DNA of 61,799 nucleotides, taken from Candidatus Moraniibacteriota bacterium. GTDB taxonomy: Bacteria; Patescibacteriota; Minisyncoccia; Moranbacterales; UBA11712. Below are positions 14,818 to 56,965 of the stretch, piece after piece (positions within the stretch are counted from its first letter, which is position 1; every line of letters begins with the position of its first letter). The position numbers and the translations under genes were made by a program. The notes beneath the pieces were generated by a model that did no database searches, was not told the DNA's origin, and was given only the letters and a program-made list of their open reading frames with translations. Location of the stretch: NCBI GenBank assembly GCA_028716005.1, contig JAQUQQ010000001.1:1-61799 (forward strand), read 5' to 3'.

Positions 14818-14828
14818 GCGCTAAATAT

Positions 14829-36389: not shown

Positions 36390-36407
36390 TTGGAATGTTT
36401 GATTTAT

Positions 36408-37367: not shown

Positions 37368-37371
37368 ATGT

Positions 37372-38778: not shown

Positions 38779-39428
38779 CTTGGTTTTATAATTTGGCGAA
38801 ATCTGAAATATTCAGAAAGGCGAAGTCCAGTCCATTTTCCCAAAAAGATATTTATCGGAATCGTGAGAAGGCTAATCCACGGATAGTTCAAAATCATCTT
38901 GATAAGCAGCGGCCAGCTGGCGATATAATATCCGATGATGGAAATGAAGAGGGTTTCCAGCGAAAGAATAACAGCGGCGCGGTTTCCCTTTTCAATTTGG
39001 ACGGCTATGAATTTTTCGACCAAAGTTATCATAATGAGAATCGGAAAAATGGAAACGCCCGCGAGGCCGGTCCGGTTCCAGGTTCCCCCGACAAAAAGGA
39101 GAAGCAGGATTGAAAATCCAACGACGGTGATCATTATGGCTACGCGGGGAAGATAAAGAAGCCTTGCTTTTTTGAGAAGATAGCGGGTGATTGTTCCCAC
39201 GACTATGACGGTCACAAAAATCGTGATGCCGTATTTGAGTTGGCTGGTGGCGAGCAGAGCGAAGGTGATGATGGCTGGCGTATAGATGCCAAAAGCTTTG
39301 ATCCCGATGACTTGACGAAAAAAAGCGATCATGGTCACGATAATCGGGAGGATCAAAACCAAGACCAGGGTGTCGAGCGGCACCCCGTTGGCAGCCGCAA
39401 GGGTGATGAACGGGTTTACGTTATCCAT
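38775..39428 (-). CDS. 7-TM membrane protein of the type associated with inactive-transglutaminase/ATP-grasp systems
   Basis: 217 aa, about 6-7 TM segments. ..FRQVIGIKAFGIYTPAIITFALL... Overlaps the downstream ATP-grasp gene by 4 nt. Confidence 0.45.
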   Translation of the reverse strand: MDNVNPFITLAAANGVPLDTLVLVLILPIIVTMIAFFRQVIGIKAFGIYTPAIITFALLATSQLKYGITIFVTVIVVGTITRYLLKKARLLYLPRVAIMITVVGFSILLLLFVGGTWNRTGLAGVSIFPILIMITLVEKFIAVQIEKGNRAAVILSLETLFISIIGYYIASWPLLIKMILNYPWISLLTIPINIFLGKWTGLRLSEYFRFRQIIKPR

Positions 39429-41739: not shown

Positions 41740-41764
41740 CTATAATTTGCTCAAATTCGCGAGT
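41308..41764. mobile_element. composite ACTCGCGAAT element (copy G) whose loop carries the GxxExxY coding segment
   Basis: Left arm 41308-41349 (actcgcgaatatggagctaatgaaaagcggattggagcgaac). Right arm 41725-41764 (gttcgctcatattagctataatttgctcaaattcgcgagt). The GxxExxY-like coding sequence lies between them. Mobility is inferred, not shown. Confidence 0.5.
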
Positions 41765-41769
41765 TGATT

Positions 41770-42372
41770 ATGTTCACAGGAATAATCAAAAAAGTTTCGA
41801 GAGTTGAAAACGTTTTCCAAAAAAATGGAAGTTTTTTTGTTGAGATAAAAATTCCGAAGGGATGGAAAATTAAACTCGGAGAAAGTATTTCGGTGAATGG
41901 GGTTTGCTCGACGGCTAAAAAAGTTAGTAAAAATAATTTTACGGTTGAATATATGCCCGAAACGGTCAAAAAAACGACCGTTGGAAATTTTGCGAAAGGC
42001 AGGGAAGTAAATCTCGAGCGGAGTTTGCGCCTCGGAGATCCCATTGACGGGCACATTGTGCAGGGGCACGTGGATACGACCGGAAAAATAATCGGAGTCG
42101 ATAAAGTAAAAAGTTCTAAAGTTTTGAAAGTAGAAGTTCCGAAAGAGTTTATGAAATTTCTGGCGCCGAAGGGGTCGGTTTCTATCGATGGGACAAGTCT
42201 CACCATAGTTGACGCGAAAAAAGATTGGTTTTCTGTATCGCTTGTGAGCTATACGCTCGAAAATACAAACCTTGGAAAAATAAAAGTGGGAGAAAAAGTG
42301 AACATTGAAGTTGACGCGCTGGCGAAATATATTTTTAACATATTAAAATCGAACGGTTATGTTAAACGCTAA
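41770..42372 (+). CDS. ribE: riboflavin synthase (alpha chain)
   Basis: Canonical MFTGII start (ATG 41770; the track start at 41764 is a TTG inside the repeat terminus). ..SISVNGVCSTA.., ..GHIVQGHVD.. and ..GSVSIDGTSLT... Confidence 0.9.
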   Translation: MFTGIIKKVSRVENVFQKNGSFFVEIKIPKGWKIKLGESISVNGVCSTAKKVSKNNFTVEYMPETVKKTTVGNFAKGREVNLERSLRLGDPIDGHIVQGHVDTTGKIIGVDKVKSSKVLKVEVPKEFMKFLAPKGSVSIDGTSLTIVDAKKDWFSVSLVSYTLENTNLGKIKVGEKVNIEVDALAKYIFNILKSNGYVKR

Positions 42373-42820
42373 AAAAGGTAAAGTAAAAAAAATAGACGGG
42401 TCGAAACTGAAGATTGGAATCGTGGTTTCACAGTTCAATGACAACATCACCGGTCCGATGCTTGAAGGCGCGCTCGAAACACTCAAAGAAAACCAAGTCA
42501 AAGAAGAAAATATTGAAATAGTCTGGGTACCGGGTTCATTTGAGATTCCACTGGCTTGTCAAAAATTGGCCGAGACGAAAAAATACGACGCGCTGGTCGC
42601 CATTGGCTGCGTGATCAAAGGAGAAACTGATCATTACTATTACATCTGCAATGAAGTTTCGCGGGGAGTGATGGATGTGATGCTGGAATATAATCTTCCG
42701 ATCGGATTCGGGGTGCTCACCTGCAATAACTTGAAACAGGCCCAGGTCCGCTCCCGCGGGCGTGAAAACAAAGGCCGCGAAGCGGCTGTTGCGGCGCTCG
42801 CGATGGCCGACGTAAAGTAA
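42359..42820 (+). CDS. ribH: 6,7-dimethyl-8-ribityllumazine synthase
   Basis: 153 aa. LKIGIVVSQFN, VPGSFEIP, GCVIKGETDHYYYI. Confidence 0.9.
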   Translation: MLNAKKGKVKKIDGSKLKIGIVVSQFNDNITGPMLEGALETLKENQVKEENIEIVWVPGSFEIPLACQKLAETKKYDALVAIGCVIKGETDHYYYICNEVSRGVMDVMLEYNLPIGFGVLTCNNLKQAQVRSRGRENKGREAAVAALAMADVK

Positions 42821-42824: not shown

Positions 42825-44336
42825 ATGGCCAAATGGGAAAAAATCGCCAGTGACTATCACTGCAATTTCTGGAAAAACTATTGTTTTGTGAAAGGAGCGG
42901 CTCTTCAGCCGGAATTGATTGATATTCAGCAGGTGCATCTGGGCATTCGGGCTTGGCCCAAAACAATTGATTATTTGTATCTTCCGGAAACGTGGAAAAG
43001 GGGCCACAGAAAACTTGCCCAATTGGCTAGCCGGGATGTTTCGCTGGTTGAAAAAATCCTGAAGAAAACAAAATTAAACGGAGAGAGAATGAACGCTTTC
43101 ACGGAAAGTTTTGTTCGCGAAAATCTCACAAAATATTCCAACAAAAAAATCGTCGAGTCTCTCAAAAAACATGCCAATTTCAATTCGTTGGAATACGCCT
43201 GGGGAATTTTGATTCCCATTCTGGATTTTCAGGACGTTCACTATATTGAAGACAATCTCAAAGCGATTCTTGGGAGAAAATTGAGCAAGGCCCAGGCCGA
43301 GCGCGCGTTTTTCATCTTTACTCAGCCGCTTCATGACTCATTTGCTCTTGAGCAGGAAAAGTCAATTTTGAAAATATTTCAAAAAATACCGAAAAAACTT
43401 TTGGAAAAAGACGCAAAAGATATCTTGGAGAAACTCGAGGCAAGATACCCGGCCATATCGCGAGAATTAAGGAATCATGTGAAAAAGTATGCCTGGGTTT
43501 TTTATGTTTACTCCGGACCGGCGGCGACGGAAAAAGATTTTGTCGAAACGCTGAAATTTTACGCCAAAAAGAAAACCAATGCCGTAAAAAAATTGAGAAA
43601 AATGGAAAATGGCAGGAACAAACTGCTGGAGGAGCGCGAATATTTTTTTCAGAAAATGAAATTGGGAAAAAAAGAAAGAAAAACCGTGGAGCTTGCTGCC
43701 GAAGTTGTATATCTCAAGCCGCGTCGGAAAGACTATCAGACAAAATCATATTATCATCTCGAATTTTTGCAGCGGGAAATTGGAAGGAGGCTTCATTTGT
43801 CGCTCAGCCAAGTGAGAAGCTGCGCCTTCCAAGAGATAAAGTCTTCTCTTCGTGGGAGAAAAATTGACGTTCATGAGATAAACAAGAGGACGGAATATCA
43901 CATTGTTGTTCCTTCTGGGAAAGAAATCAAAATATATTCAGGGAAAAAGGCAAAAGAATTTGAGAAAAATATCAGAGAAGAGAGGGTGGAGATAGGTATA
44001 AAGAAAGAAATAGAGGGTCAGTCAGCTTTCCCCGGAACGGCGAGAGGATTGGTGAAAAGAGTGGATATACCTGGAGATATGAAAAAAATGAAAGAAGGCG
44101 ATATTCTGGTTTCCACCGCCACAACCCCGAGCATTATTCCGGCGATTAGGAAAGCAGCGGCCATTGTGACGGACGAAGGCGGGCTCACCTGCCATGCGGC
44201 GATTGTGAGCCGGGAATTTGAGATTCCGTGTGTAATCGGGACGAAATTCGCTACCAAAATCTTGAAAGACGGGGATTTAGCGGCAGTGGATGCTACCACT
44301 GGAAAAGTCAAAATTATAAAAAAAGCTAAAAAATAA
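42825..44336 (+). CDS. PEP-utilizer swivel (phosphohistidine) domain protein, paralog P1, long N-terminal domain
   Basis: 503 aa. C-terminus ..GDILVSTATTPSIIPAIRKAAAIVTDEGGLTCHAAIVSREFEIPCVIGTK... The N-terminal ~390 aa are helical and Lys-rich with KYAWVFYVYSGPA. No ATP-grasp motifs seen. Confidence 0.8.
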   Translation: MAKWEKIASDYHCNFWKNYCFVKGAALQPELIDIQQVHLGIRAWPKTIDYLYLPETWKRGHRKLAQLASRDVSLVEKILKKTKLNGERMNAFTESFVRENLTKYSNKKIVESLKKHANFNSLEYAWGILIPILDFQDVHYIEDNLKAILGRKLSKAQAERAFFIFTQPLHDSFALEQEKSILKIFQKIPKKLLEKDAKDILEKLEARYPAISRELRNHVKKYAWVFYVYSGPAATEKDFVETLKFYAKKKTNAVKKLRKMENGRNKLLEEREYFFQKMKLGKKERKTVELAAEVVYLKPRRKDYQTKSYYHLEFLQREIGRRLHLSLSQVRSCAFQEIKSSLRGRKIDVHEINKRTEYHIVVPSGKEIKIYSGKKAKEFEKNIREERVEIGIKKEIEGQSAFPGTARGLVKRVDIPGDMKKMKEGDILVSTATTPSIIPAIRKAAAIVTDEGGLTCHAAIVSREFEIPCVIGTKFATKILKDGDLAAVDATTGKVKIIKKAKK

Positions 44337-44345
44337 TTTTTCTAT

Positions 44346-45905
44346 ATGAAAACAGATTTGTGGGTCAACAATTTTTCGGTCCATCGCTCCGGTTATCACC
44401 TCGCCGCGCCGGTTCTCTATGGCATAATCAATTCCCAGAAAATATTGTTTGGGAAAAAGAAACCGCCGGTTCTTAGAAATTACTTCATGATTTTCGAGGG
44501 CCCGAATATGATTCAAGCGATTCACAAGAAAGAAGAATTACGGGAACTGATAGAAAATACAATAAAAGAAATATTCAAAAATCCAAAAAAACTCAACAAA
44601 ATTCACAAAGAAACCTACAAACTCAATGACCAATATCTTTCTTTTGCCAGGTACTGTGCCAAAATAAATTTGCGGGAATTGTCCGATGCGGAACTCGGTA
44701 AAATATATTTGAAACTGATTGATTGGCAAGAAAGAGCGCACCAGCATGCCATGGCGACGACCTGGTATCTCGATAGCGATGGCGAAGATTTTTCCAAGTT
44801 GCTTATCGAAAAAACGAAAGAGTTCTGCCACTCTTCCGGGGCGAAAATAAATTTTGCCGATGCTTTCAGTGTTTTGACGACTTCAACAAGAGATACTTTA
44901 GGGGCGAAAGAAGAGATGGAATCTCTGGAGGTGATGCGCTTAATTTTGAAAGACAAGCAAGCCAAAAAAATCTTCCAAAATTTGAGAAACTTTCAAATTG
45001 TTCCCGTCGGTCTTTCGGAAAATCTTGCCAGAGCCATTCAAAAACATTTTGAAAAATGGCGTTGGCTGGCTTTCAATTATATGGGACCGGCTTACGAGAT
45101 AGATTTCTTTCTCAAGATGTGGTCAGATTTGGTAAAACAAAAATTTGATGTCAAAAAAGAGATCCAAAAGAAAAAAAATTGGGCGGGGAAAATAATGGAT
45201 CAGAAGAAAACAATTATCCGAGAGCTGAAAATAGACAAAAAATGGCGAACCATATACAACATCGCGGCTGACGTCGTGAATCTCAAGGGATACCGCAAAG
45301 AGTGCTGCTTTCACGGATTTTTTGTCATGGATGCGATGCTACGGGAAATGGCCAAGCGGCTCAATCTGGCCCGCAGTCAAATGTATCTGCTCACTTTTCA
45401 AGAAATTGGCGACATCTTTTTGAAAGAAAAAAAAGTTGATGCCAATCAGATCAACAAAAGAAACGGTTTCACTATTCTGGATTTCAAAAAAGGAAAAATC
45501 CGCGTGTTTACGGGAAACCAAGCCAAAAAATATTTTTCGAAAATCAATCTTGAAAAAGAAATAATCGACAAGAACGTCAGTGAGCTTCAGGGAACGTGCG
45601 CCTGCAGCGGCCAAGCCAAAGGGATTGTTAAAATGATAAACTTTGTCGAAGATATGCCCAAGATGAAAAAGGGGGACGTCATGGTCGCCCACACCACGTT
45701 TCCCAATCTTGTTCCGGCCATGAAATTGGCCTCGGCCATCATCACGGAAGACGGCGGAATGACGTGCCACGCGGCGATTGTGGCGCGGGAGCTTGAAACG
45801 CCGTGCATCACCGGAATTAAAACCGCGACCAAGGTTCTGAAAGACGGTGATTTGGTCGAAATCAATGCGGATGAGGGATTGGTGAAAATAGTCAAGAGAA
45901 AATAG
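44346..45905 (+). CDS. PEP-utilizer swivel domain protein, paralog P2
   Basis: 519 aa. ..GGMTCHAAIVARELETPCITGIK... The N-terminal domain is homologous to P1 (KWRWLAFNYMGPA, ..LREMAKRLNL..). Confidence 0.8.
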   Translation: MKTDLWVNNFSVHRSGYHLAAPVLYGIINSQKILFGKKKPPVLRNYFMIFEGPNMIQAIHKKEELRELIENTIKEIFKNPKKLNKIHKETYKLNDQYLSFARYCAKINLRELSDAELGKIYLKLIDWQERAHQHAMATTWYLDSDGEDFSKLLIEKTKEFCHSSGAKINFADAFSVLTTSTRDTLGAKEEMESLEVMRLILKDKQAKKIFQNLRNFQIVPVGLSENLARAIQKHFEKWRWLAFNYMGPAYEIDFFLKMWSDLVKQKFDVKKEIQKKKNWAGKIMDQKKTIIRELKIDKKWRTIYNIAADVVNLKGYRKECCFHGFFVMDAMLREMAKRLNLARSQMYLLTFQEIGDIFLKEKKVDANQINKRNGFTILDFKKGKIRVFTGNQAKKYFSKINLEKEIIDKNVSELQGTCACSGQAKGIVKMINFVEDMPKMKKGDVMVAHTTFPNLVPAMKLASAIITEDGGMTCHAAIVARELETPCITGIKTATKVLKDGDLVEINADEGLVKIVKRK

Positions 45906-45906
45906 A

Positions 45907-47400
45907 ATGAAGAAGAAAACCTGGACAAAAATGTGGTCGGACCGGCCGTATTCCTTGCATCTCATGAGCATGGTGAACGAAGCCACGATTTTTGGTTTCA
46001 AAAAAATTTTCTGGCAGAGCAAAATCACCGGGGGCTTTAACTATTGGGAGGATGGCGCAAGCAGCTATTTTTATGAAACCCACGAACTACGGGAAACAGC
46101 CCGGCTGCTCGCGGAAAAATCTTTGAAGTTTCCCAATTTCCTGCTGGATTTTTTGGAAGATGTTTATCAGAGAGCTAGGCGTCTTCGGAGGACGACGGAA
46201 AAATACAAAAAAATAAATCTGGCAACCTGCCCATCCGAAAAGCTCGTGAAGTTTATTGAGAAATATTCCCGAGAGTTTCTTGATTTTTATGCTCGCGCTA
46301 CAGTCGCCCCGATTCTTGGATATCAGGATGAAAATCCAATCTACAAAAAAATGGATGAATTGATCCGATCAAAAACAAAAGATCATCCCGAAAAATATTC
46401 AGGCTATTACACATGCCTTACAAATCCGCCGAAGAAGCTCAAAAACAATTTTATGGAAATTGAGACTTTGAAATTGGCTAAAAAGGCAAAAAAAGCGGGC
46501 GTGAGGTCGAGAAGCCAGTTGATTAAAAATTTCAAAGACGAGCTTCAAGCCATTGCGGATAAATATAAATTTATGTCTTTTGATTTTTGCGATTCGGCGT
46601 CCTGGAATCTCGAGTATTTCGCGAATTTAGCGCTGGAAAAAATGAAAGCGAATATCAATTCCGAATTGAAAAAACTGCTGAATCTTGAAAAAATATCCGC
46701 CAAAAATTTCAAAAAAGCGGCAGGGGAGCTGAAACTTTCAAAAAAAGAAAAAGACATTTGTAACCTCGTGAAATATTTGGGCTATCAAAAATGGGCGCGG
46801 GAACATGAATTTCAAGAAGCGCAATATAACCTGAAGCCCGTTCAGGACGAACTGGGGAAAAGAGCGGGACTTTCAACGCTTGAAGCAAAATATTGTTTGG
46901 CGGATGAATATGGGAAATTGCTCAAGAGTTCGGAAGGATATAAGAAATTGACTCAGGCCAGAATAAAAAAATCCCTGTGCCTTGTAAAAATTGGAAAAAA
47001 AACAAAGGTTTTTCTCGGCCAAGACGCGCGAAATATATTTTCGAGGATGAAAAAAGAAGAACCAACGAAAATTGACAAAAAATCAGAATTCAAAGGCATG
47101 CCGGCTTTTCCCGGAAAAGTTTTGGGAAAAGTGAAAATAATTATCACCGTGAAAGACGCGGGGAAAATGAAAAAAGGAAACATTCTGGTTTCTCAAGCGA
47201 CCGGTCCGGATCTTCTCCCGGCCATGAAAAAGGCCGCGGCGATTGTGACGAATGAAGGCGGCATCACGGCTCACGCCGCGATAGTCTCTCGCGAGCTCAA
47301 AATTCCTTGTGTAGTCGGCACCAAAATCGCAACGAAAGTTTTGCAGGATGGAGATCTCGTCGAAGTGGATGCGAATAAGGGAATTGTTAGAAAAATATGA
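45907..47400 (+). CDS. PEP-utilizer swivel domain protein, paralog P3
   Basis: 497 aa. ..GGITAHAAIVSRELKIPCVVGTK... The ATG is 1 nt after the P2 stop. Confidence 0.8.
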   Translation: MKKKTWTKMWSDRPYSLHLMSMVNEATIFGFKKIFWQSKITGGFNYWEDGASSYFYETHELRETARLLAEKSLKFPNFLLDFLEDVYQRARRLRRTTEKYKKINLATCPSEKLVKFIEKYSREFLDFYARATVAPILGYQDENPIYKKMDELIRSKTKDHPEKYSGYYTCLTNPPKKLKNNFMEIETLKLAKKAKKAGVRSRSQLIKNFKDELQAIADKYKFMSFDFCDSASWNLEYFANLALEKMKANINSELKKLLNLEKISAKNFKKAAGELKLSKKEKDICNLVKYLGYQKWAREHEFQEAQYNLKPVQDELGKRAGLSTLEAKYCLADEYGKLLKSSEGYKKLTQARIKKSLCLVKIGKKTKVFLGQDARNIFSRMKKEEPTKIDKKSEFKGMPAFPGKVLGKVKIIITVKDAGKMKKGNILVSQATGPDLLPAMKKAAAIVTNEGGITAHAAIVSRELKIPCVVGTKIATKVLQDGDLVEVDANKGIVRKI

Positions 47401-48869
47401 AGAAAAAATTGTATAAAATCCTGGTCAAAGAATCAAATATCAATTTTCACAATTGGTATTCAACAGCCGAAGGATTTCATCATCCCGTATTCAAAAAATT
47501 TGTCGGTGCAGTCATTTCAAATTGGCTCATCAAAATAGAAAAAGATCGAGGAGAATGGGGCATAGTAGAAAAGGAGTGGGAGAATGTCGGCGCAATTTTC
47601 GCAAAAAGATTGGCAGCGGGGAAAATTGATATTTTTGACATCGAACAAAAACACTATCAAATAGGGGAGAAAATCTGGAGGCTAACTGATTTTGTTTATC
47701 AAAACAAGCTTGAGAGCGTACCCCTATCTCGTTTGCTGACGACTCTCAGACAAATGTGGAAATATTATTGGTATTTAAATGGTATTGGTTATATTGCAGT
47801 AATCAGCGATTTGGGCCACGGCTATCTGATGGGCCAACTGTCCAAAATTCTTTTGCAAAAAAAAGTTTCTTCTAATAAAATCCAAGCTTATCAAAGCCTG
47901 TTGTCCAGCCCCAATAAAAGAACTTTGTTTTGGCAAGAAAACCTGGAACTTCTGCAATTGTGCGATAAACACAAATTAGCGACAAAACTATCAGGCAGCC
48001 AAGATTTTGATAAGCATGTAGAGAAATGGTTTTGGCTCAATTATGGCTATCAGGGACCGGCTTGGAACGGGGATGATTTTTTGATGAGAGTAAAGGAGAT
48101 TTTCAGAAACAAAAACATTAAAAAGGCATTGGCCGAACATCAAAAAAATTTCCAAACACTAGTTTTGAAACAAAGGGCGCTAAGCAAAAAGCTCAAGATC
48201 ACACGAAAGGAGAATTACTATTTTGAAACAGCCAGGCTATTCACACATTTGAAAGGATACCGGATAGAAGTCAGGCACCGCTACAGCTGGGCTTTGGATC
48301 AAATATTTTCAGAACTTGGCAGACGTCTCAATTTGCCGCTAACCTTTTTCAGATATGCCACGAGGGAAGAGATTATCAGTGCTGCAACAAAAAAAAGTTT
48401 TCCAAGCGAGACGGTTTCAAAACGCAAACAAAAAATGCTTTATGTTTTTAAAAACTTAAAAGGCTCATTTATAAAAATCGACTCGGTGGATAAAAATTTT
48501 CAATCTTTACTGGAAGATGAAAAAATTGAAGCTTCCGAAGCTATTTCGGGGCAAACAGCGTATTCTGGCAGAGCGATAGGCAAGGTTAAAATTTTAGAAC
48601 ACGAAAAAGATGTGGCCAAGATTCGAAAGGGCGACATTTTGGTTACTTTTGCAACTACTCCGGATTTTTTGCCAGCAATGATAAAAGCATCCGGCTTCGT
48701 CACCGATCAGGGTGGAATAACATCGCATGCAGCAATCACTGCCCGTGAGCTCAAAAAACCCTGCATCATCGGCACCAAAATCGCAACGAAGGTTTTGAAA
48801 GACGGAGATCTCGTGGAAGTGGACGCGGACAAGGGGGTTGTGAAAATAATCAAGAAAAGAAGAAAATGA
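47397..48869 (+). CDS. PEP-utilizer swivel domain protein, paralog P4
   Basis: 490 aa. ..GGITSHAAITARELKKPCIIGTK... ATGA overlap with P3. Confidence 0.8.
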   Translation: MKKKLYKILVKESNINFHNWYSTAEGFHHPVFKKFVGAVISNWLIKIEKDRGEWGIVEKEWENVGAIFAKRLAAGKIDIFDIEQKHYQIGEKIWRLTDFVYQNKLESVPLSRLLTTLRQMWKYYWYLNGIGYIAVISDLGHGYLMGQLSKILLQKKVSSNKIQAYQSLLSSPNKRTLFWQENLELLQLCDKHKLATKLSGSQDFDKHVEKWFWLNYGYQGPAWNGDDFLMRVKEIFRNKNIKKALAEHQKNFQTLVLKQRALSKKLKITRKENYYFETARLFTHLKGYRIEVRHRYSWALDQIFSELGRRLNLPLTFFRYATREEIISAATKKSFPSETVSKRKQKMLYVFKNLKGSFIKIDSVDKNFQSLLEDEKIEASEAISGQTAYSGRAIGKVKILEHEKDVAKIRKGDILVTFATTPDFLPAMIKASGFVTDQGGITSHAAITARELKKPCIIGTKIATKVLKDGDLVEVDADKGVVKIIKKRRK

Positions 48870-49912
48870 ATAAATGGATAAAAACTTGGGATGGAAAATG
48901 GGGGGTGCTATCATCCTCATACCCTGGATATCTTTATACAAAAGGGATAAGAAAATACCTGGGCGCCTCTTTTGACAATTATCTTGTGATAGGCGCTAAA
49001 GGCTTAGGCGCCGGCTTCGTGCCACAAAAGGAAATAATCAGTTTTGGAAATAAGCTAGCGGGTAAAATAAAAACAAAAAGAAAAATAGCTTTGCTTTGGA
49101 TAAAAAATCTCAGAAAACAAACCGATTATATAAATAAACTTCTAAAGAAAATATATAAAGAAGAAAAACTAACAGAGAAGCACTACTATACAGTGCTGGA
49201 AGCAATGAAAAAATATGTTGCTTGGCACGCGGCGATAAAGTTTTCCGGTGATCATTTGTTGGGAGATGAACACAAAAAAATTCTTTCCGAATTTAGCAGA
49301 GCCAGGGTTTATTCAGAAAATATTTATGTTGAAGTCGAGAATTTTTTTCAGAAGCATTTATTTGTGATTTCCCGAAAGATCTCCTGTCCAATTTTTCTAA
49401 TAAACCAATTGACTGAAGTTGAAATAGATCGTTATCACAAGAAAAATATAATTCCCGAGAGAAAAGTACTCAAAGAAAGATTCAGAAAAATAGCAATAAT
49501 ATTTAAACGAGGAAAATATAAGATACTGTCAGGTAGGAAAGCCGGACTTTACGAAAAGAGAATTATCGGAAATAATATTACGAAAATTCTGAAAGGGCAA
49601 CCAGCCTTTCGCGGAACAGTTAGGGGCCGAATTAGAATTGTTTTGGATCCCGCGCTTCAGGCGATCAAAAAAGGTGAAATACTGGTTGCCGGAATGACAA
49701 GGCCGGCCTTCTTGCCTCTCATAAGAAATTCGTCGGCATTTGTCACGGATGCTGGCGGGACGCTCTCTCATGCAGCTATAACAGCAAGAGAATTGAAAAA
49801 GCCTTGCATAGTCGGAACCAAAATCGCGACCAAAGTTTTGAAAGACGGCGATCTCGTGGAAGTGGACGCGGATAAGGGGGTTGTGAGGATAATACAGAAA
49901 ACAATACTATGA
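48866..49912 (+). CDS. PEP-utilizer swivel domain protein, paralog P5, short N-terminal domain
   Basis: 348 aa. ..GGTLSHAAITARELKKPCIVGTK... ATGA overlap with P4. Confidence 0.8.
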   Translation: MNKWIKTWDGKWGVLSSSYPGYLYTKGIRKYLGASFDNYLVIGAKGLGAGFVPQKEIISFGNKLAGKIKTKRKIALLWIKNLRKQTDYINKLLKKIYKEEKLTEKHYYTVLEAMKKYVAWHAAIKFSGDHLLGDEHKKILSEFSRARVYSENIYVEVENFFQKHLFVISRKISCPIFLINQLTEVEIDRYHKKNIIPERKVLKERFRKIAIIFKRGKYKILSGRKAGLYEKRIIGNNITKILKGQPAFRGTVRGRIRIVLDPALQAIKKGEILVAGMTRPAFLPLIRNSSAFVTDAGGTLSHAAITARELKKPCIVGTKIATKVLKDGDLVEVDADKGVVRIIQKTIL

Positions 49913-50925
49913 AAAAGAATTTTTTTGAACTTATATTTACGCGTGATCGTCAGATTATTACGCAGTATGCATGGCAAGACGCGAATCGTGACGGTATGGA
50001 GAAACTTCTAAAAATTAAATTGCCCTCTCGTGTCGGCATGGTCGTTTATGTCAACAATGGTGCGATAGAATGTTGGGATAGCATAGATGGGGTGAAATTT
50101 ACGGAAAGGAAAGTTTTAGAGGCAAATAAAAAAAATCCTGAATATTTATTAAACTTGATTCGAAGATTTGATATAAAAAATGAAAAATATTTTTTGCCGA
50201 CCTGCAGGAAGGAAACTAGCAGTATCATAAAAATAAAAGAGTTTATAAAAAAATTTGATGAATATTCTGCATTGTTTGCGTATATTTGGATTTCGATGCT
50301 TAACCCTAGAACACCTGCCGCACTTTTAAAAAAAATTAATGAATGGAGAGATAAAGATGATTTTTTCGGTTTGGGATCGCAATTTCTAGACAAAAGTCTG
50401 GAAAATATCTACCCGGAATTGAAAGGGCTTACAAGCTACATCATGAAGGAAGAGGTTGAAAATCCCCCCTCAATAGACATCCTTAAAAAGAGGCAAAGAA
50501 ATTTTTTACGAGTTTCTCGAAAGAGTCCGGAAATAATTTCAATGGAAAAGTTTGCGAAAAAGCGTAAGGATATGATTTTCTTGTTTCCTGAGATTGTGGC
50601 TAGGAAGAAAATTTTAGGGCAAACTGGATGCAAGGGGAACATCAGAGGAACAGTAAAGGTGCTGAGGACAAAGGCAGAGATAGGAAAAGTAAATAGGGGT
50701 GATATTATAGTTTCGCCGATGTCCGTCCCGGAATTTATACCTGCGATGAAAAAAGCGGCTGCCATTATTACTGACGAAGGCGGGTTTTTATGCCATGCGG
50801 CAGTTGTTTCCCGAGAATTGAAAAAGCCCTGCGTCATCGGCACGAAGATTGCGACGAAAGTCCTGAAAGACGGGGATCTCGTGGAAGTGGATGCGGATAA
50901 AGGGATTGTGAGGATAATAAAATGA
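49909..50925 (+). CDS. PEP-utilizer swivel domain protein, paralog P6
   Basis: 338 aa. ..GGFLCHAAVVSRELKKPCVIGTK... ATGA overlap with P5. Confidence 0.8.
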   Translation: MKKNFFELIFTRDRQIITQYAWQDANRDGMEKLLKIKLPSRVGMVVYVNNGAIECWDSIDGVKFTERKVLEANKKNPEYLLNLIRRFDIKNEKYFLPTCRKETSSIIKIKEFIKKFDEYSALFAYIWISMLNPRTPAALLKKINEWRDKDDFFGLGSQFLDKSLENIYPELKGLTSYIMKEEVENPPSIDILKKRQRNFLRVSRKSPEIISMEKFAKKRKDMIFLFPEIVARKKILGQTGCKGNIRGTVKVLRTKAEIGKVNRGDIIVSPMSVPEFIPAMKKAAAIITDEGGFLCHAAVVSRELKKPCVIGTKIATKVLKDGDLVEVDADKGIVRIIK

Positions 50926-51980
50926 AGAACAATAAAAAGCGAAAAAAGATAATCTTTGAAAAAAACTATACCCGGGACTGTTCTTTGGTTATCCAAGGTC
51001 TTTGGCTCCAGGTTTCTAAGGATGCAGTAAAGGAAATTCTCGGAGAAAAATTTTCCAGTGAAGTTTACGGTTTCGATTACCTGAATAAGGGAGTCACTGA
51101 AATTTGGGAAAATAAAAAATTGGTGAAAAAAATAAAAGCGGCGTTGGTAAAACAATCTTTTCAACCCGATTCAAAAATATATAAATCTTTGGTTGAAGCT
51201 CAGGACAGGCTTGAGTATTTCAGGAAAGTGTGGCAAAAAAAGTATTTGTCGACTTGGAATGAATTAAACGGTTTCATGGATGAAATTGAAAGAGAAATGA
51301 GAAAGAATTTGCTCTATACGTATTTGGGTGTTCAAGAAACAGCCGAAAAAAGAACATATCAATTGGCGAAAAAAATGCGGTCAGAGGATCATTTTTTCGC
51401 TTATAACGACAGATTGGTTAGGGATACTTTAAATAAACTATATCCCTCTTCGAGAAGTTTCGAAGTTGCATTGACAGTCGACGAAATAAAAAGTGGCAAT
51501 CTTCCGAGGAGAGAAATGTTGAAAAAACGCTTCGATTCTTTTTTTCTGGATTCGGAAAATCATAAGATGTTGTGGAGCTCGAAAACATTCAGGGGAAAAT
51601 ATCCACATTATGTTTTGGCAGGGAAGGACGATATAAATTTCGGTGGAGTTTTGAAGGGAATCGCAGCAAGCAAAGGAAGCGCTATCGGACCCACGAGAAT
51701 TGTAAGGTTAAATCGCGAGGTAAATAAAATAAAAAAAGGGGACATGGTTGTGGCTTCAATGACCACGCCGGTATTAGTGCCGGGTTTAAAAAAGTCAGTG
51801 GGGATAGTCACAGACGAGGGTGGAATTCTGTGCCATGCTGGTGTAATTGCCCGGGAATTGGGCATACCTTGCGTCATCGGCACGAAGATTGCGACGAAAG
51901 TTTTGAAAGACGGGGATCTCGTGGAAGTGGATGCGGATAAGGGATTGATAAATATTTTAAAAAAATATGGGAGAAATTGA
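50922..51980 (+). CDS. PEP-utilizer swivel domain protein, paralog P7
   Basis: 352 aa. ..GGILCHAGVIARELGIPCVIGTK... ATGA overlap with P6. Confidence 0.8.
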   Translation: MKNNKKRKKIIFEKNYTRDCSLVIQGLWLQVSKDAVKEILGEKFSSEVYGFDYLNKGVTEIWENKKLVKKIKAALVKQSFQPDSKIYKSLVEAQDRLEYFRKVWQKKYLSTWNELNGFMDEIEREMRKNLLYTYLGVQETAEKRTYQLAKKMRSEDHFFAYNDRLVRDTLNKLYPSSRSFEVALTVDEIKSGNLPRREMLKKRFDSFFLDSENHKMLWSSKTFRGKYPHYVLAGKDDINFGGVLKGIAASKGSAIGPTRIVRLNREVNKIKKGDMVVASMTTPVLVPGLKKSVGIVTDEGGILCHAGVIARELGIPCVIGTKIATKVLKDGDLVEVDADKGLINILKKYGRN

Positions 51981-52743
51981 ACAATTTGGCATGATTCGGC
52001 ATGGTGCCAAACAAAAAGGAGGGGAAATAAGAAAGCCACTCGAGGAATCAGGGCTATCAAAAGAGCAGCAACGAAAATGGAGCGAAGCGGTTGAGGCTTT
52101 AAAGTTAGTAGACCCGGAGCTTTCCCATGAAACAGTTCCAGGAATTGAGAAATTGGCGCGGCATATATATGACGGGCTTCCAAAACATGCCCTTGTGATT
52201 TTTGTTTCAACAGACACGCCCAGGACGAAACTGACGGCTGACTTGCTTTCAATGGAGATACTAGAAATAGAGAATAGTGGGGGCAATAAAAAAGATGTGG
52301 CAGTAGCCTTTATTTGGGAACCGGAAGAAATAAAAAAGCAGCCGAACAGCCTTTCTAATATTCCGATATGGCCTCCTGAAATTATGAAAACAATGAGAGA
52401 GATAATCATGCAAGACGCAAGGGATGATGAGGTAATGGAAGCATATCTCAAGAGTGACGGAAATTTTGAGATTCCCAATGAAAACGGCATCATGTTCAGG
52501 GCGATAAACAACGATCTTTCCAATGAGGAATCTAGCCTCAAAAGAAGGGCTGAAGAGCTCATGATTCAGTATGAAAAATTGAAGAATACTTTTGTGAACG
52601 AAAAAAGGCCAATATTTTTTTATGGACTTGGGCATCATTCAAGCCTGGTTGCTCTTGATATCGCGTTTAATGGAAGAGAGGAATATATATCAGTGGATGA
52701 AATACCTAATCCCCTGGATCTATGGCACGCAAAAAAACAATAA
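51967..52743 (+). CDS. histidine phosphatase superfamily (PGAM-like) protein
   Basis: 258 aa. N-terminal MIRHGAK (RHG motif), ..STDTPRTKLTADLL.. and C-terminal ..FFYGLGHHSSLVAL... Overlaps P7 by 14 nt and P8 by 22 nt. Confidence 0.55.
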   Translation: MGEIEQFGMIRHGAKQKGGEIRKPLEESGLSKEQQRKWSEAVEALKLVDPELSHETVPGIEKLARHIYDGLPKHALVIFVSTDTPRTKLTADLLSMEILEIENSGGNKKDVAVAFIWEPEEIKKQPNSLSNIPIWPPEIMKTMREIIMQDARDDEVMEAYLKSDGNFEIPNENGIMFRAINNDLSNEESSLKRRAEELMIQYEKLKNTFVNEKRPIFFYGLGHHSSLVALDIAFNGREEYISVDEIPNPLDLWHAKKQ

Positions 52744-53789
52744 AGATCTCAATTCCGAAAGACGTTCACATTGCTTGGGAAAGGGATTTCTCCTTTTTGG
52801 GTTGCTATATGATCGCCGAGCAGCACCTCAAAGAATTAAAACGCTACATAGATGTTGGTTACACGATGTGTGCGTTCTATCACAAAAACGGACATGTCAT
52901 ATTTTACAGAAGCGAATCGGATGAGAAAAATTTCGATAGCCGAATTGCAGGCAGATGTCTGGAAGAAGAAGGTTTCGCGAAGCACGCTACGGAAAAGCTA
53001 AAGAAAATAACCGATGAGTTCAATGCTTTCTTTAAAAAACAAAAGCGTCTATCGAAAGATAACGTCAAGCAGTTTTTCCGGATGGCTAATGAGCATTTCG
53101 CTTATCATCTGGCAGTATTCTGGTCGGCTGATTATATAAGAAAAAACAATTTGGATAAAAGAAACAAGAAAATTTTCGGAATGCTTGAGAAGGCGCGAAA
53201 ATACAATGAAAATATTTTGCCCAACATTGAGAATTGGATTGCAAAACAAGATCCGATTTTTTCGGTGATGCGTCCGAAGGAGTGCGTGGATTATTTATGG
53301 AAAGAATGGAAGCTGCAGTCCTCGGTCCTTAGCGCTCGCGATGAGGCTTCTTTTGTGTATTTCGATAAAAAAAATAAATATGTATCCACCGGAAAACGTG
53401 CTATTGAGTATAAGAAAAAATTTGATAAATCTTTTCTAAGGAGGTTTAAGCTTTCTGAAAATATATTAAAAGGCAGGCCGGCTTACAAGGGTCGCTATAA
53501 AGGAAAGGTTCGCGTCATTGAAAGATTCGAAGATTTCAAGAGAGTGAAACGAGGAGAAATCATTGTTGCGCCGGTAACGCGTCCGGCATATAGTTCATAT
53601 ATAAGGAGAGCAGGAGCAATTGTGGCCGATGAAGGAGCAATTCTTTCTCACACGTCCATTATTGCGAGGGAATTCAAAATTCCCTGTGTTATTGGGACAA
53701 GAATTGCAACCAAAGTTCTCAAAGACGGCGATCTCGTAGAGGTGAATGCGGATAAGGGGATAGTTAAAATAACCAAAAAATCGAAATAA
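52722..53789 (+). CDS. PEP-utilizer swivel domain protein, paralog P8
   Basis: 355 aa. ..EGAILSHTSIIAREFKIPCVIGTR... Confidence 0.75.
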   Translation: MARKKTIKISIPKDVHIAWERDFSFLGCYMIAEQHLKELKRYIDVGYTMCAFYHKNGHVIFYRSESDEKNFDSRIAGRCLEEEGFAKHATEKLKKITDEFNAFFKKQKRLSKDNVKQFFRMANEHFAYHLAVFWSADYIRKNNLDKRNKKIFGMLEKARKYNENILPNIENWIAKQDPIFSVMRPKECVDYLWKEWKLQSSVLSARDEASFVYFDKKNKYVSTGKRAIEYKKKFDKSFLRRFKLSENILKGRPAYKGRYKGKVRVIERFEDFKRVKRGEIIVAPVTRPAYSSYIRRAGAIVADEGAILSHTSIIAREFKIPCVIGTRIATKVLKDGDLVEVNADKGIVKITKKSK

Positions 53790-53790
53790 T

Positions 53791-54729
53791 ATGGAAAAAT
53801 TCAGACCTTCCCGTACCGATACGCGTCAAATACCTCCGTTGAGTCCCGACAAAGATATGCCTGCACCGGTAGAATTAGAGAAAAAGGAAGACGAGCCTCG
53901 TCTTCTGAAATTTTCAATTCTGGCGGATGTCCATAAAGGTCCCGTGTCCTATTACAAAGGAGCTCTGCGGAAAATAACTCAAGGAGCGAAGGAATATCTG
54001 GATGCGTATATCGAGGAGATGAACGAGAGAGTAAAGCCCGCTTTTGTAATGGCTCTAGGAGATATTATTGAGGACGACGGTCTTGAAAATGACCGTCGGA
54101 ACCTAAAAGAAGTGATTGACGGACTAAAAAAACTAAACTGCCCGGTTTACTATGCTGCCGGAAATCATGATCTTCGCAACGTATCCGAAGAGGAACTAGC
54201 GCAGACTTTCAATCGGGAAAAACTATATTATTCATTCGACTCCGAAGATTATCACGGTATAGTCCTTTATTCAAAGGCTATTGAAGATAAAATAGCTGTC
54301 ATCTCGGAGGATCAGCTGACGTGGCTGAAGAAAGATCTTGAGTCGACGGACAAGAGATGTCTCGTATTCGTCCATCATGGTTTGTCTGACCAGGATATGA
54401 CCGGAAACCCGTGGTTTGAGGGTGCGCCATTCCCCAGCCTTGTGGAAAATCGGAGCGAGGTCCAAAAAATTCTCGAACAATCCGGAAAAGTTGCGGCGGT
54501 ATTTCAAGGGCATCTGCATTGGGACAAAATGGAAGTTCAAAATTCTATTCCATATTTCACCCTGCAGTCTCCAGTGGAAAATGAAGATGATCTTGGATTT
54601 GCCAGCGAAGCGCGGCATATTGTGGAAGTCAACGGAAAGGCAGTGAGCATGGAAGTGAGAGGGAGATACCCCAAAAAATTCAGGCACGAATTTTCTTTTG
54701 GAGAACGGCCTGAACTCGGGAGAAAATAG
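53791..54729 (+). CDS. calcineurin-like metallophosphoesterase
   Basis: 312 aa. ILADVHKG, LGDIIED, AAGNHDL, VFVHHG, FQGHLHWD. The ATG is 1 nt after the P8 stop. Confidence 0.8.
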   Translation: MEKFRPSRTDTRQIPPLSPDKDMPAPVELEKKEDEPRLLKFSILADVHKGPVSYYKGALRKITQGAKEYLDAYIEEMNERVKPAFVMALGDIIEDDGLENDRRNLKEVIDGLKKLNCPVYYAAGNHDLRNVSEEELAQTFNREKLYYSFDSEDYHGIVLYSKAIEDKIAVISEDQLTWLKKDLESTDKRCLVFVHHGLSDQDMTGNPWFEGAPFPSLVENRSEVQKILEQSGKVAAVFQGHLHWDKMEVQNSIPYFTLQSPVENEDDLGFASEARHIVEVNGKAVSMEVRGRYPKKFRHEFSFGERPELGRK

Positions 54730-54749
54730 TGCTTAAATGGGAAAATTAA

Positions 54750-54845
54750 AGTGTCGTTGGCACCAAAACCGCAACTAGAATAATCAGGAATGGCGATCTC
54801 GTGGAAGTAGACGCGGATAAGGGGGTAGTGAAAATAATTAAGAAA
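54750..54845 (+). pseudogene. 3' remnant of a ninth PEP-utilizer swivel paralog
   Basis: Reads SVVGTKTATRIIRNGDLVEVDADKGVVKIIKKEK directly after a TAA at 54747-54749. It corresponds to only the last ~30 codons of P3-P8 and runs on in frame into the ORF ending at 55253. Confidence 0.7.
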
Positions 54846-54917
54846 GAAAAAAATAAAGTAGAAAAAGTTCTGGCATATTGTATAAATAATAAGCATTTAC
54901 AATTAATTTTAATTAAT

Positions 54918-55253
54918 ATGAATAAAAGAGAAATGCCTTCTTCCCGAGAGAGAGAGGACCTGACAAAAGAGTTGCTTGACAAAGAGCTAGATGGGTTTGG
55001 AAAAGTCGTTCGCATTTACAGTGAAAAAACCGGTCAAAATATGCCCCCTGCGACTCAAAAATATCTCGAAGACATGCAGCACTCGTTAGATAATACGCAA
55101 GAAAATGATGTTGATAAATTGAGTGAAATTAAAGATGCAATTTTACGCGAGGCGGAATTTCATAGCAGAATAGCCGGTTTCGATTTGTGGGATGAAACTC
55201 GCGAAATTAATAACATAATCTCCAGATTGAAATCAGTAAAAGAATCAAAGTAG
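54918..55253 (+). CDS. hypothetical acidic protein (start uncertain; the ORF is continuous with the remnant upstream)
   Basis: MNKREMPSSREREDLTKELLDKELDGFG... No recognised motif. The track ORF 54801..55253 starts with a GTG inside the remnant. Confidence 0.3.
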   Translation: MNKREMPSSREREDLTKELLDKELDGFGKVVRIYSEKTGQNMPPATQKYLEDMQHSLDNTQENDVDKLSEIKDAILREAEFHSRIAGFDLWDETREINNIISRLKSVKESK

Positions 55254-55366
55254 TTGAGAGCATGAAATGGTTTAGAAAAAAAGAATCTAGAAATGTTATG
55301 AAACATGGCTTGGGATGCAATGGCGGGAAAAGACAGAGAGAATATATAAGTGCTAAAATCTAAATT

Positions 55367-56365
55367 ATGTATACAAAAACATTCAAAGAAATATCAAAAA
55401 AAGATGTCGGGATCGCTGGTGGAAAGGGGGCGTCTCTCGGCGAAATGTCTGGGTCTGGTATTCCCGTGCCGCCGGGATTTGTTATCACAATCGATGCTTT
55501 TGACCGGTTTCTCGAAGAAACCGATCTCGGAGTCGATATTGTTTCAATCCTCAAAAATATAAACTATAAAGATATGAGCTCGGTGGACAAAGCGTCGCAT
55601 GAGATCCGCGATATGATCCACGATGTTCCGATGCCGAAAGACCTCGCGAAATTATTTTTAGGAGAATTCAAGAAACTCAAGGCGCCATACGTCGCAGTCC
55701 GCAGCAGCGCAACGGCCGAAGACTCGGCGGTGGCTTCCTGGGCGGGAGAACTGGAAACTTATCTCAACACTACGGGGAAAAAGATTTTTGAAAACATCAA
55801 AAAATGCTGGTCCTCGCTTTTCACCCAGCGAGCGCTCTTTTATGCCTTTGAAAAGCAAGTGTTCACGAAAAAACATCAGCAGAAAATCAGAGCTGGAACG
55901 TCCAAAATCAAAGATTCTTACCCGGTGAGCGTGGCGGTGGTCGTTCAAAAAATGGTGCAGTCGGACATTTCGGGGATTTGTTTCACCGTCCATCCAGTGA
56001 CGGAAAACAAAAAACAAATGGTGATTGAAGCCGGGTATGGGCTTGGGGAGGCAATTGTTTCCGGACAGGTTACACCCGACACGTATGTTGTCGATAAACA
56101 AGATTTCTCGATTGCGGACATCAATTTCTCTGAGCAAACAAGAATGATTGTGAAAAAGAAAGGCGAGGGCGTGGAGTGGAAACCGGTGCCGAAGAAGACG
56201 CAAAATCGGCAAAAATTGACCGGCAAGCAGATTGTCGAGTTGGCCAAGCTTTGCGACAGAATTGAAAAACATTACAAAAAACCTCAAGACATCGAATGGG
56301 CGCTTGAGAAAGGGAAATTCTATATAACGCAGTCGCGGCCGATAACTACTCTCACTCGCGAATAA
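55367..56365 (+). CDS. stand-alone PPDK_N-type ATP-grasp (nucleotide-binding) domain of PEP synthase/pyruvate phosphate dikinase/rifampin phosphotransferase-like enzymes
   Basis: 332 aa. GIAGGKGASLGEM..GIPVPPGFVIT, VAVRSSATAEDS, VAVVVQKMVQSDISGICFTVHP, EAGYGLGEAIVSGQVTPD, DIEWALEKGKFYITQSRPIT. Ends at the domain boundary; the last codons and the stop lie in repeat copy H. Confidence 0.85.
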   Translation: MYTKTFKEISKKDVGIAGGKGASLGEMSGSGIPVPPGFVITIDAFDRFLEETDLGVDIVSILKNINYKDMSSVDKASHEIRDMIHDVPMPKDLAKLFLGEFKKLKAPYVAVRSSATAEDSAVASWAGELETYLNTTGKKIFENIKKCWSSLFTQRALFYAFEKQVFTKKHQQKIRAGTSKIKDSYPVSVAVVVQKMVQSDISGICFTVHPVTENKKQMVIEAGYGLGEAIVSGQVTPDTYVVDKQDFSIADINFSEQTRMIVKKKGEGVEWKPVPKKTQNRQKLTGKQIVELAKLCDRIEKHYKKPQDIEWALEKGKFYITQSRPITTLTRE

Positions 56366-56413: not shown

Positions 56414-56965
56414 TTATTTCTTCTTTCTATATTCGAAGCCGATTATTTTTACCGGTTCAATCCGGTCTTTTTCAACAAGGCGCTTGATGGCATCGAAGAT
56501 GATTTTGAATTTCCCATCGCATTTTCGTTCTATGGCCTCTATTTTTTCGCGAAGTGCCCTATTGCTCGCAACCATTTCCCGAATTTTTGTGAAAGTTCGC
56601 ATAATTTGAATATTTACCCGAATCGCCCGTTCACTTCTCAAGACAGAGGAAAGCATCGCAACTCCCTGTTCGGTAAAAACATAAGGTAATTTTCTTTTTC
56701 CGCCCCATCTTGAAGTCACAAATCGTGACTTCAAGATTTCATCAGAAATCACAGATTGCGATTTCAAAATTTTCGCCTCTTGCTTTGTAAGTTGAAACAT
56801 AAAGTCGACTGGGAAGCGTTTCGCATTTCTTTTTGCTGCCTGATTGAGCACTTTTACTTGAACCCCATAAAGCCTTGCCAAATCGTCATCGAACATCACT
56901 TTCTTCCCGCGAATCAGATATATTTTGTTTTCGATTATTTCATTCGGTATAATTTTGTTTCGCAT
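56414..56965 (-). CDS. ORF6N (KilA-N-like) DNA-binding domain protein
   Basis: 183 aa. IYLIRGKKVMFDDDLARLYGVQVKVLNQAAKRNAKRFPVDFMFQLT and ..RWGGKRKLPYVFTEQGVAMLSSVL... Confidence 0.75.
   Translation of the reverse strand: MRNKIIPNEIIENKIYLIRGKKVMFDDDLARLYGVQVKVLNQAAKRNAKRFPVDFMFQLTKQEAKILKSQSVISDEILKSRFVTSRWGGKRKLPYVFTEQGVAMLSSVLRSERAIRVNIQIMRTFTKIREMVASNRALREKIEAIERKCDGKFKIIFDAIKRLVEKDRIEPVKIIGFEYRKKK

Follow-up and report, generated by a model that had tools for sequence, protein, structure and literature searches.

The window, the whole stretch of DNA analysed here, comprises 61,799 nucleotides (nt) from a metagenome-assembled genome of Candidatus Moraniibacteriota bacterium (Patescibacteria; contig JAQUQQ010000001.1). 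Positions 42825-56365 of its plus strand hold eight genes, P1 to P8, for proteins ending in a swivel-His domain (the PEP-utilizers mobile domain of phosphoenolpyruvate (PEP) synthase and its relatives), and one gene, G, for a PPDK_N-type ATP-grasp domain (Table 1). The original prediction had described eight consecutive swivel-His genes, and had proposed that one ATP-grasp protein may phosphorylate many such carriers in trans. The PF00391 domain was found in all eight proteins, although a gene for a protein of 258 amino acids (aa) interrupts the series between P7 and P8; a metallophosphoesterase gene, the relic of a ninth swivel tail and a small open reading frame (ORF), all located between P8 and G, had been overlooked. 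By scanning every ORF of at least 80 aa with hidden Markov models (HMMs), we found no further swivel or ATP-grasp gene in the window.

Table 1. Features of the P1-to-G locus (positions in the window)
Feature	Position	Strand	Description
P1	42825-44336	+	503 aa; predicted long-type acceptor subunit, 390-aa helical substrate domain and swivel-His domain, H457; PF00391 E 6.6e-26, residues 423-493
P2	44346-45905	+	519 aa; predicted long-type acceptor subunit; PF00391 E 1.8e-24
P3	45907-47400	+	497 aa; predicted long-type acceptor subunit; PF00391 E 2.6e-25
P4	47397-48869	+	490 aa; predicted long-type acceptor subunit; PF00391 E 1.7e-25
P5	48866-49912	+	348 aa; predicted short-type acceptor subunit; PF00391 E 1.2e-23
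P6	49909-50925	+	338 aa; predicted short-type acceptor subunit; PF00391 E 4.1e-23
P7	50922-51980	+	352 aa; predicted short-type acceptor subunit; PF00391 E 2.5e-22
Putative P8-partner gene	51967-52743	+	258 aa; between P7 and P8, overlapping both
P8	52722-53789	+	355 aa; predicted short-type acceptor subunit, deviant His-loop; PF00391 E 1.4e-20
Metallophosphoesterase (calcineurin-like)	53791-54729	+	final gene of the tight putative operon
Ninth swivel-tail relic	54754-54853	+	33 aa / 100 nt; VVGTKTATRIIRNGDLVEVDADKGVVKIIKKEK
Small ORF	54918-55253	+	111 aa; reading frame shared with the relic
G, stand-alone ATP-grasp (PPDK_N)	55367-56365	+	332 aa; PF01326 E 1.1e-97; proposed shared charger

The P genes are tightly packed. 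Four junctions (P3/P4, P4/P5, P5/P6 and P6/P7) overlap by 4 nt, the 258-aa gene overlaps P7 by 14 nt and P8 by 22 nt, and the gaps at P1/P2, P2/P3 and P8/phosphoesterase measure 9, 1 and 1 nt, respectively. Given overlaps of 4-22 nt all the way from P3 to P8, the genes from P1 through the phosphoesterase look like one operon. A promoter and terminator scan of the locus did not define operon boundaries: terminator-like sites were at background level, and promoter-like sites numbered 40 versus 26.1 +/- 5.4 in shuffled sequences.

Each of the eight P proteins ends in a complete swivel domain, the PF00391 matches (E 1.4e-20 to 6.6e-26) running from profile position 1 or 2 to position 72 of 72. In the alignment of P1-P8 the phospho-carrier His (H457 in P1 numbering) is invariant, as are G452, R463, E464, P468 and C469. 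The loop that carries this His reads T-x-x-G-G-x-x-x-H in P1-P7 and A-x-x-G-A-x-x-x-H in P8; the earlier claim of an intact motif in every copy is thus right for the His itself but not for the P8 loop. As judged from the estimated swivel boundary, the N-terminal regions measure 390, 408, 389 and 377 aa in P1-P4 and 236, 229, 238 and 243 aa in P5-P8, in agreement with the two predicted size classes of about 390 and 240 aa. Neither PPDK_N nor any other nucleotide-binding Pfam family was detected in the N-terminal regions of P1-P8, so a nucleotide-binding fold there, whose absence had been anticipated, finds no support.

Sequence searches of the PDB reached only the swivel and, in the case of P2, the C-terminal ~100 residues of the rifampin phosphotransferase (RPH) substrate domain, with P2 315-516 aligning to RPH 667-866 at a low-confidence alignment edge. 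Since the profiles of both P families likewise extend only into the final part of the RPH substrate domain, structure comparison was needed. We built AlphaFold2 (AF2) models of P1 and P7 on alignments of 41 and 42 sequences. The P1 model (predicted local distance difference test score, pLDDT, 92.9) had RPH 5HV1 as its top PDB match (E 4.5e-13, query TM-score (TMq) 0.58, 566 columns), and the P7 model (pLDDT 93.1) had RPH 5FBT (E 1.2e-11, TMq 0.32-0.36), a weaker match than that of the long type. Since the best structural match of both size classes is RPH, each P protein corresponds to a substrate domain plus His carrier, that is, to RPH minus its ATP-grasp, just as the original prediction had it; the short class is modelled as a reduced version of the RPH-like substrate domain. 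Profile-profile comparison aligned the long and short N-domains over their last ~70 residues only (P7 163-240 to P1 313-395; hhalign E 1.6e-58, a value that includes the swivel). The idea that the N-domains are mutually homologous therefore holds for this segment, and for the rest it draws solely on the shared match of the models to RPH. In the P1 family K298 and R301 are invariant and K302 is nearly so, and these residues map to the stretch of RPH that contains Arg666 and Lys670; numbering extrapolated from the weak alignment edge would pair K298 with Arg666 and K302 with Lys670. A search with P1 retrieved 3006 database proteins at E <= 0.001, the best-scoring of which are nearly all ~500 aa long, while P7 retrieved 4959 at the same threshold, many through the shared swivel, with most of the 120 best at ~340 aa. 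By Pfam, the best relatives of both are nearly all swivel-only proteins, and they come from Patescibacteria and some DPANN.

G is the counterpart that the P proteins lack. PF01326 covers residues 16-331 of its 332, with no other Pfam domain, and its C-terminus coincides with the point at which the swivel starts in PEP synthase (NF005057 model positions 6-340), which bears out the view that the only PPDK_N gene of the window stops at the domain boundary. Its alignment with the RPH ATP-grasp 5HV6 (E 6e-63) spans the full length, and it also matches the 387-aa stand-alone PDB chain 9GOJ (E 5.9e-48), which is probably one of the ATP-grasp subunits of the PpsAB/CreHI/HpeHI type. RPH Arg117 and Thr136, which are required for the ATP-side half-reaction and whose mutation blocks rifampin inactivation (PMC4844700), are kept in G as R112 and T131. 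Judged by its sequence, G is a complete ATP-grasp module.

Could these proteins be a split or degenerate PEP synthase or pyruvate phosphate dikinase (PPDK) of central carbon metabolism? Their best NCBIfam rows are indeed PEP synthase models, and database names include 'phosphoenolpyruvate synthase' and 'PEP-utilizing enzyme'. This explanation is contradicted by the domain content, as PF02896, the PEP/pyruvate-binding TIM-barrel, had no hit in any of the nine proteins. Moreover, the matches to TIGR01418 (cut-off 740) are partial, with 87-122 bits over only the swivel for the P proteins and 312 bits over only the ATP-grasp for G, and the N-domains are predicted to fold like the RPH substrate domain. 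We consider it barely credible.

A survey of relatives revealed that the combination of many P genes with a single stand-alone G recurs across Patescibacteria and DPANN. A one-genome-per-species scan returned 79 loci, of which, by record titles, about a third are from DPANN (Micrarchaeota, Nanoarchaeia, Woesearchaeota, Pacearchaeota and Iainarchaeum) and the rest mostly from Patescibacteria. The ORFs of 82 loci, with flanks of +/-10 kb, were scored with the swivel HMM and the ATP-grasp sequence. At least two P genes are present in 48 of these loci, at least four in 25 and at least seven in 8, with a maximum of 11. A stand-alone G (291-354 aa) is found in 20 of the 82, usually at the 3' end of the array, and no locus has two. 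The possibility that G is a truncated pseudogene unconserved beside such arrays is excluded. In the closest relative (L002, Moranbacteria RBG_13_45_13) the order is P500-P521-P510-G333 at the syntenic site beside RuvC and YebC, with the G ortholog of 333 aa closing the array and the three P genes being 1:1 orthologs of P1-P3 (N-domain identities of 65%, 66% and 69%, respectively). Relative to this genome, the window gained P4-P8. On a 678-kb contig (L003), six P genes, an HD gene, a HAD gene, a 626-aa P and G312 add up to seven P and one G, and a JGI contig carries P599-G286, five further P genes and a HIT gene.

In other genomes the same modules are joined in single polypeptides. One ATP-grasp is fused to one module in L054 and in the relatives P0066 and P0117 (both of the latter 40% identical to P1), to two modules in L044 (Moraniibacteriota) and L068, and to three in L014. 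The largest such protein is a 4768-aa ORF of Nanoarchaeota archaeon H52-bin087_1 (L082:5858-20164, plus strand), in which an N-terminal ATP-grasp precedes ten modules of mixed long and short types, with substrate domains of ~250 aa and ~320-400 aa; a separate 541-aa P gene follows downstream. P-P fusions without G are seen in P0015, P0016 and L022. When 1.84 billion representatives were searched with a profile, 33,352 scored E <= 0.001 and 8,572 of these cluster representatives E <= 1e-30; many of the best hits carry 2-6 matched stretches in proteins of up to 2648 aa. The fusion of one ATP-grasp to several modules is the strongest available argument that one G serves several separate modules. 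As a separate observation, two proteins encoded within 10 kb of P genes (L055:1790-4441, minus strand, and L056:3-2126, plus strand) consist of an ATP-grasp, then a swivel, then a long C-terminal region, and by this order look like canonical PPDK or PEP synthase; L056 also has a stand-alone ATP-grasp, so two systems may coexist there.

We assessed the age of the paralogs by a best-match test on the 188 modules of loci that contain three or more. In 176 of the 188 the N-domain has its best match in another genome, and in 171 the swivel does; P4, for instance, finds its best N-domain match outside the window in L052, at 35% identity. Among the P proteins of the window, BLAST misses most N-domain pairs, and those that it does detect share 22-28% identity, versus 52-63% for the swivels. 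Because best matches lie in other genomes, the eight P genes represent old, separately maintained orthogroups and not recent copies. Gene conversion or concerted evolution of the swivels, which the near-identical GTKIATKVLKDGDLVEVDA tails and the 100-nt direct repeats had suggested, was rejected on the strength of the same best-match counts and because the tail is a family-wide consensus. Paralogs of such age are more in keeping with distinct, conserved acceptor specificities than with a system that evolves fast or was amplified recently.

Taken together, these results indicate that the locus probably encodes a one-to-many, multi-component small-molecule dikinase of the RPH/HpeHI/PpsAB type. 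The proposal builds on domain content, fold, catalytic residues, conserved synteny and natural fusions. Under this model, G would bind ATP and the swivel of any of the eight P proteins would dock on it, whereupon the invariant His would take the beta-phosphate, yielding AMP, Pi and P~His. The swivel would then swing back to its own helical N-terminal domain and hand the phosphate to a small molecule bound there. Given that the eight N-domains are ancient and separately conserved, the operon would supply eight acceptor specificities from a single ATP-binding module, and the co-encoded phosphoesterase, possibly together with the 258-aa protein, would act on the phosphorylated products. The RPH fold, the retained G residues, the recurring layout and the fusions all favour the originally proposed charging of many carriers by one protein in trans, which, along with the use of one G by all eight, the small-molecule acceptors and the phosphatase role, we infer. 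A full-length PpsA or PPDK encoded elsewhere as the partner is unnecessary given the adjacency of G and the fusions.

Alternatively, G might charge only one or a few P proteins, the others being ATP-independent, His-mediated phosphotransferases or users of another donor. There is precedent for the former activity in HpeH, the acceptor subunit of HpeHI, which by itself transfers phosphate from 4-phosphoacetophenone to acetovanillone (PMC12167813). Many arrays have no G within 10 kb, and in L003, L034, L049 and the JGI contig a ~600-aa P adjoins G, which hints at one privileged pair. However, the fusions combine one G with two, three or ten modules, long and short alike, G never occurs twice in a locus, and the far greater similarity of the swivels than of the N-domains within the window fits docking of all of them on one partner. 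We therefore regard such restricted charging as unlikely.

The accessory genes of the arrays also bear on function. The 258-aa protein belongs to a family of 10 proteins found, the named ones all from Patescibacteria, and no member has a Pfam hit. In both other contigs examined, its relative lies directly upstream of a short P: L085:9038-11798 is a minimal unit (G314-259aa-P342) beside sigma-70 and ribonucleotide reductase genes, while L086:10001-11811 is a 254aa-P356 pair with no ATP-grasp nearby. Because of this constant pairing, the protein is likely a dedicated partner of P8-type proteins. It contains the motifs R11-H12-G, STDTPRTKLTADLL and GHH, and the elements R-H-G, S-T-D-T-P-R-T-x-x-T-A and G-H-H are invariant in the family, reminiscent of histidine phosphatases. 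We tried this assignment (RHG, S-x-x-x-R-x-x-x-T-A, GHH) and rejected it, as neither Pfam nor a PDB profile search nor an hhalign comparison with His_Phos_1 proteins from other arrays gave a significant match, which leaves a hint at the level of motifs. The metallophosphoesterase matches NCBIfam cyclic-nucleotide phosphodiesterase models at E 4.5e-13 and 3.6e-12, both under cut-off. The relic starts just after a stop codon, lacks the His part and runs in frame into the small ORF; it is the ninth copy of direct-repeat family D2 and is 78% identical to the P4 tail. For the 111-aa small ORF, no significant Pfam or PADLOC hit was obtained, nor was a relative found in 86 fetched loci. PADLOC was also used to consider an anti-phage defence system, which we rejected: P1, P4, P7, P8, G, the 258-aa protein and the 111-aa ORF had no hit, and the phosphoesterase had only a 14-bit row at chance level.

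Among the 58 same-strand ORFs located within arrays, the phosphoesterase ORF of the window included, at most 15 encode phosphohydrolases, a count in which one protein is scored per family hit. They belong to five superfamilies: six HAD, five histidine phosphatase, two HD, one low-molecular-weight phosphatase and one metallophosphoesterase (PF00149 Metallophos, E 2.5e-12). Only phosphohydrolases recur within arrays, the remaining ORFs being mainly PIN/toxin-antitoxin and other selfish elements. The context points only to phosphate chemistry, not to a pathway.

Some of these phosphatases are of protein type (one LMWPc and several histidine phosphatases in some arrays), and the swivel domain is common to the P proteins and Enzyme I of the phosphotransferase system (PTS). 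Conceivably, then, the P proteins could be phospho-carriers or regulators that pass phosphate to proteins, as in a PTS-like relay or a protein kinase system. Matches to Enzyme I, however, span the swivel only, no HPr, EIIA or other relay partner was found in the window or recurring in the flanks, and the modelled N-domain resembles the small-molecule cleft domain of RPH. We deem a protein relay very unlikely.

The recurrence of phosphatases within arrays argues against a resistance function, since a phosphatase would undo an inactivating phosphorylation. With the mechanism unchanged, the acceptors might be antibiotics or toxins, so that the array would form a resistome of RPH-like inactivating kinases protecting an epibiont from compounds of its host or neighbours. 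RPH is the top structural match for both P types, it has been placed in a wide small-molecule dikinase family of which some members act on antibiotics (Stogios et al., PMC4844700), and a survey of candidate phyla radiation genomes included rph-like genes in its count of resistance genes (PMC8651080). Against this, the P proteins score 51-70 bits and G 289 bits on the curated RPH model NF041857 (cut-off 999), which puts them far under the RPH family threshold (the other curated RPH model, NF000283, has a cut-off of 1700). RPH Glu667 is not conserved, the arrays are found among housekeeping genes, and old, separate orthogroups in bacteria and archaea with tiny genomes fit core functions better than accessory resistance. 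We judge antibiotics and toxins to be improbable acceptors.

Several observations weigh against a one-to-many dikinase at this locus. G is separated from the tight P1-phosphoesterase block by ~640 nt that contain the relic and the small ORF, and G is missing from the +/-10 kb surroundings of most of the 82 loci, which may reflect the flank limit or a G that is not always linked. As the window covers 61.8 kb, a second ATP-grasp or a full-length PpsA/PPDK may be encoded elsewhere in the genome. RPH Glu667 has no conserved counterpart in the P1 family, aligning to Pro or Gly at the weak alignment edge. At profile level, nothing in the long N-domains matches the first ~160 residues of the short type, and it is the shared RPH fold match of the models, alone, that suggests their homology. 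ATP-independent roles of P proteins are possible by analogy, because HpeH alone moves phosphate between substrates (PMC12167813). Finally, the flanks give no pathway signal: 150 ORFs around arrays hit 183 Pfam families, none more than three times, and with no consistent metabolic context the acceptors are a guess.

Elsewhere in the window, the riboflavin genes RibF, RibE and RibH (40948-42820) lie upstream of the P array, while in L002 (15603-17039) they lie downstream of the ATP-grasp, which amounts to a local rearrangement. The first of these ORFs (40948-41739, plus strand) encodes a riboflavin kinase (Flavokinase) fused to a PD-(D/E)XK nuclease domain (PDDEXK_3), in which the peptide motif TRECGANGKRIGAN / TREYGANEKRIGAN is present twice; its L002 ortholog is a 109-aa flavokinase only, suggesting a domain insertion. 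Directly after G, on the minus strand, is a gene for an ORF6N-domain protein (56414-56965; PF10543, E 1.4e-33) that has no equivalent at the corresponding site of L002 and may have been inserted. Also on the minus strand, a conserved ATP-grasp gene cluster (35466-39428) lies beside a seven-transmembrane (7TM) transglutaminase-like gene, in synteny with L002. The one window gene of this cluster that was scanned (37372-38778) has an ATPgrasp_ST hit and a Zn-protease domain, the other members of the cluster being read off the L002 gene table, and the cluster looks like a peptide-modification or ligase system. The 1212-aa ORF at 14214-17852 (plus strand) has no significant Pfam match, its sole row being a chance-level TSP3 repeat.

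Much of microbial diversity falls within Patescibacteria and DPANN, whose genomes are tiny and which presumably depend on host metabolites. To our knowledge, the enzymes with which they handle host-derived metabolites are largely unknown. If one ATP-grasp serves many modules, the locus would represent a compact, modular way of phosphorylating many substrates and would extend the two-component dikinase family well past aromatic catabolism. It would also offer a ready in vitro system of one charger and eight carriers with His phosphorylation as the read-out, and would correct the 'PEP synthase / gluconeogenesis' and 'rifampin resistance' labels that automated annotation feeds into metabolic and resistome reconstructions of these organisms. 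More tentatively, we suggest that shared-charger phosphoryl distribution could be a signature trait of ultra-small symbiotic prokaryotes (Patescibacteria and DPANN), in which a single ATP-grasp feeds up to a dozen ancient acceptor enzymes, in trans or as beads on a giant polypeptide, and which, with phosphatases alongside, would form much of their machinery for phosphorylating scavenged metabolites. Such a trait, if real, would be an undescribed modular way to build a kinase repertoire, and many 'PEP synthase' and 'rph' calls in Patescibacteria and DPANN genomes would be misannotations.

The claim that no hub-and-spoke system of this kind had been described needs to be qualified. No prior description of P arrays was found in full-text searches, which did not reach most subscription-journal papers, and the one-to-many layout appears to be undescribed so far. 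The split between ATP-grasp and acceptor, however, is already known from the biochemically characterised two-component enzymes phenylphosphate synthase (PpsAB), 4-methylbenzyl phosphate synthase (CreHI) and hydroxyphenylethanone kinase (HpeHI). The original premise that the three domains share one polypeptide, while true for PEP synthase, PPDK and RPH, missed these enzymes (PMC12167813). The precedent makes the locus less surprising; it is still a large, unstudied and directly testable enzyme system.

The closest parallel is with these two-component enzymes. In HpeHI, HpeI is a stand-alone ATP-grasp of known crystal structure, and HpeH consists of an RPH-like substrate domain and a swivel whose T/S-x-x-G-G-x-x-x-H loop carries the catalytic His; ATP-dependent phosphorylation needs both components and the His is essential, and CreHI and PpsAB belong to the same subfamily (PMC12167813). 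As at our locus, a ~330-390-aa ATP-grasp subunit is kept apart from a subunit with an RPH-like substrate domain and swivel-His, the His-loop is common to both (in P1-P7), and a phosphatase is encoded in the same pathway. The mechanism we presume is the route proposed for HpeHI, from ATP to His to substrate with release of AMP and Pi (PMC12167813). The known enzymes differ in being 1:1 pairs with a ~600-aa acceptor, whereas the locus has eight acceptors per ATP-grasp, with substrate domains of ~390 and ~240 aa, and its family shows variable P:G ratios and natural fusions of one ATP-grasp with up to ten modules. They also come from cultured bacteria, which encode them in operons for the catabolism of aromatic compounds (HpeHI with its carboxylase), unlike the present family from Patescibacteria and DPANN; no carboxylase or aromatic-catabolism gene was found in the window, where the neighbours are RuvC, YebC, riboflavin genes and phosphoesterases.

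Among single-chain enzymes, RPH (PDB 5HV1, 5FBS/T/U) is the top structural match of both P types. Its order of ATP-grasp, substrate domain and swivel equals G placed before P, an arrangement realised in the fused relatives P0066, P0117 and L054, and its Arg117 and Thr136 are conserved in G; at the weak alignment edge, basic residues of the P1 family may fall at the Arg666 and Lys670 positions. Unlike the window proteins, whose domains are split across genes, RPH has its single substrate domain within one chain of ~865 aa, and the substrate domain of the short P proteins is about half the size of its rifampin-binding domain. PEP synthase and PPDK have homologous PPDK_N and swivel-His domains, and the ATP-grasp sequences nearest to G are those of PEP synthase and RPH; PEP synthase and PPDK are, however, single polypeptides acting on one substrate, with a C-terminal TIM-barrel that the locus proteins do not have. 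The prodigiosin ligases PigC/RedH and other single-chain RPH-like dikinases follow the same three-domain logic, with a variable middle domain setting the acceptor. The PigC/RedH NCBIfam models match both G and the swivels at scores far under cut-off, and these ligases are single-chain, single-substrate enzymes of secondary-metabolite clusters. Across curated models, the similarity of the P proteins is confined mostly to the swivel domain. Relative to the known dikinases, the novelty lies in the shared-charger layout, in minimal substrate domains of ~240 aa, in the giant fusions and in a distribution restricted to ultra-small bacteria and archaea.

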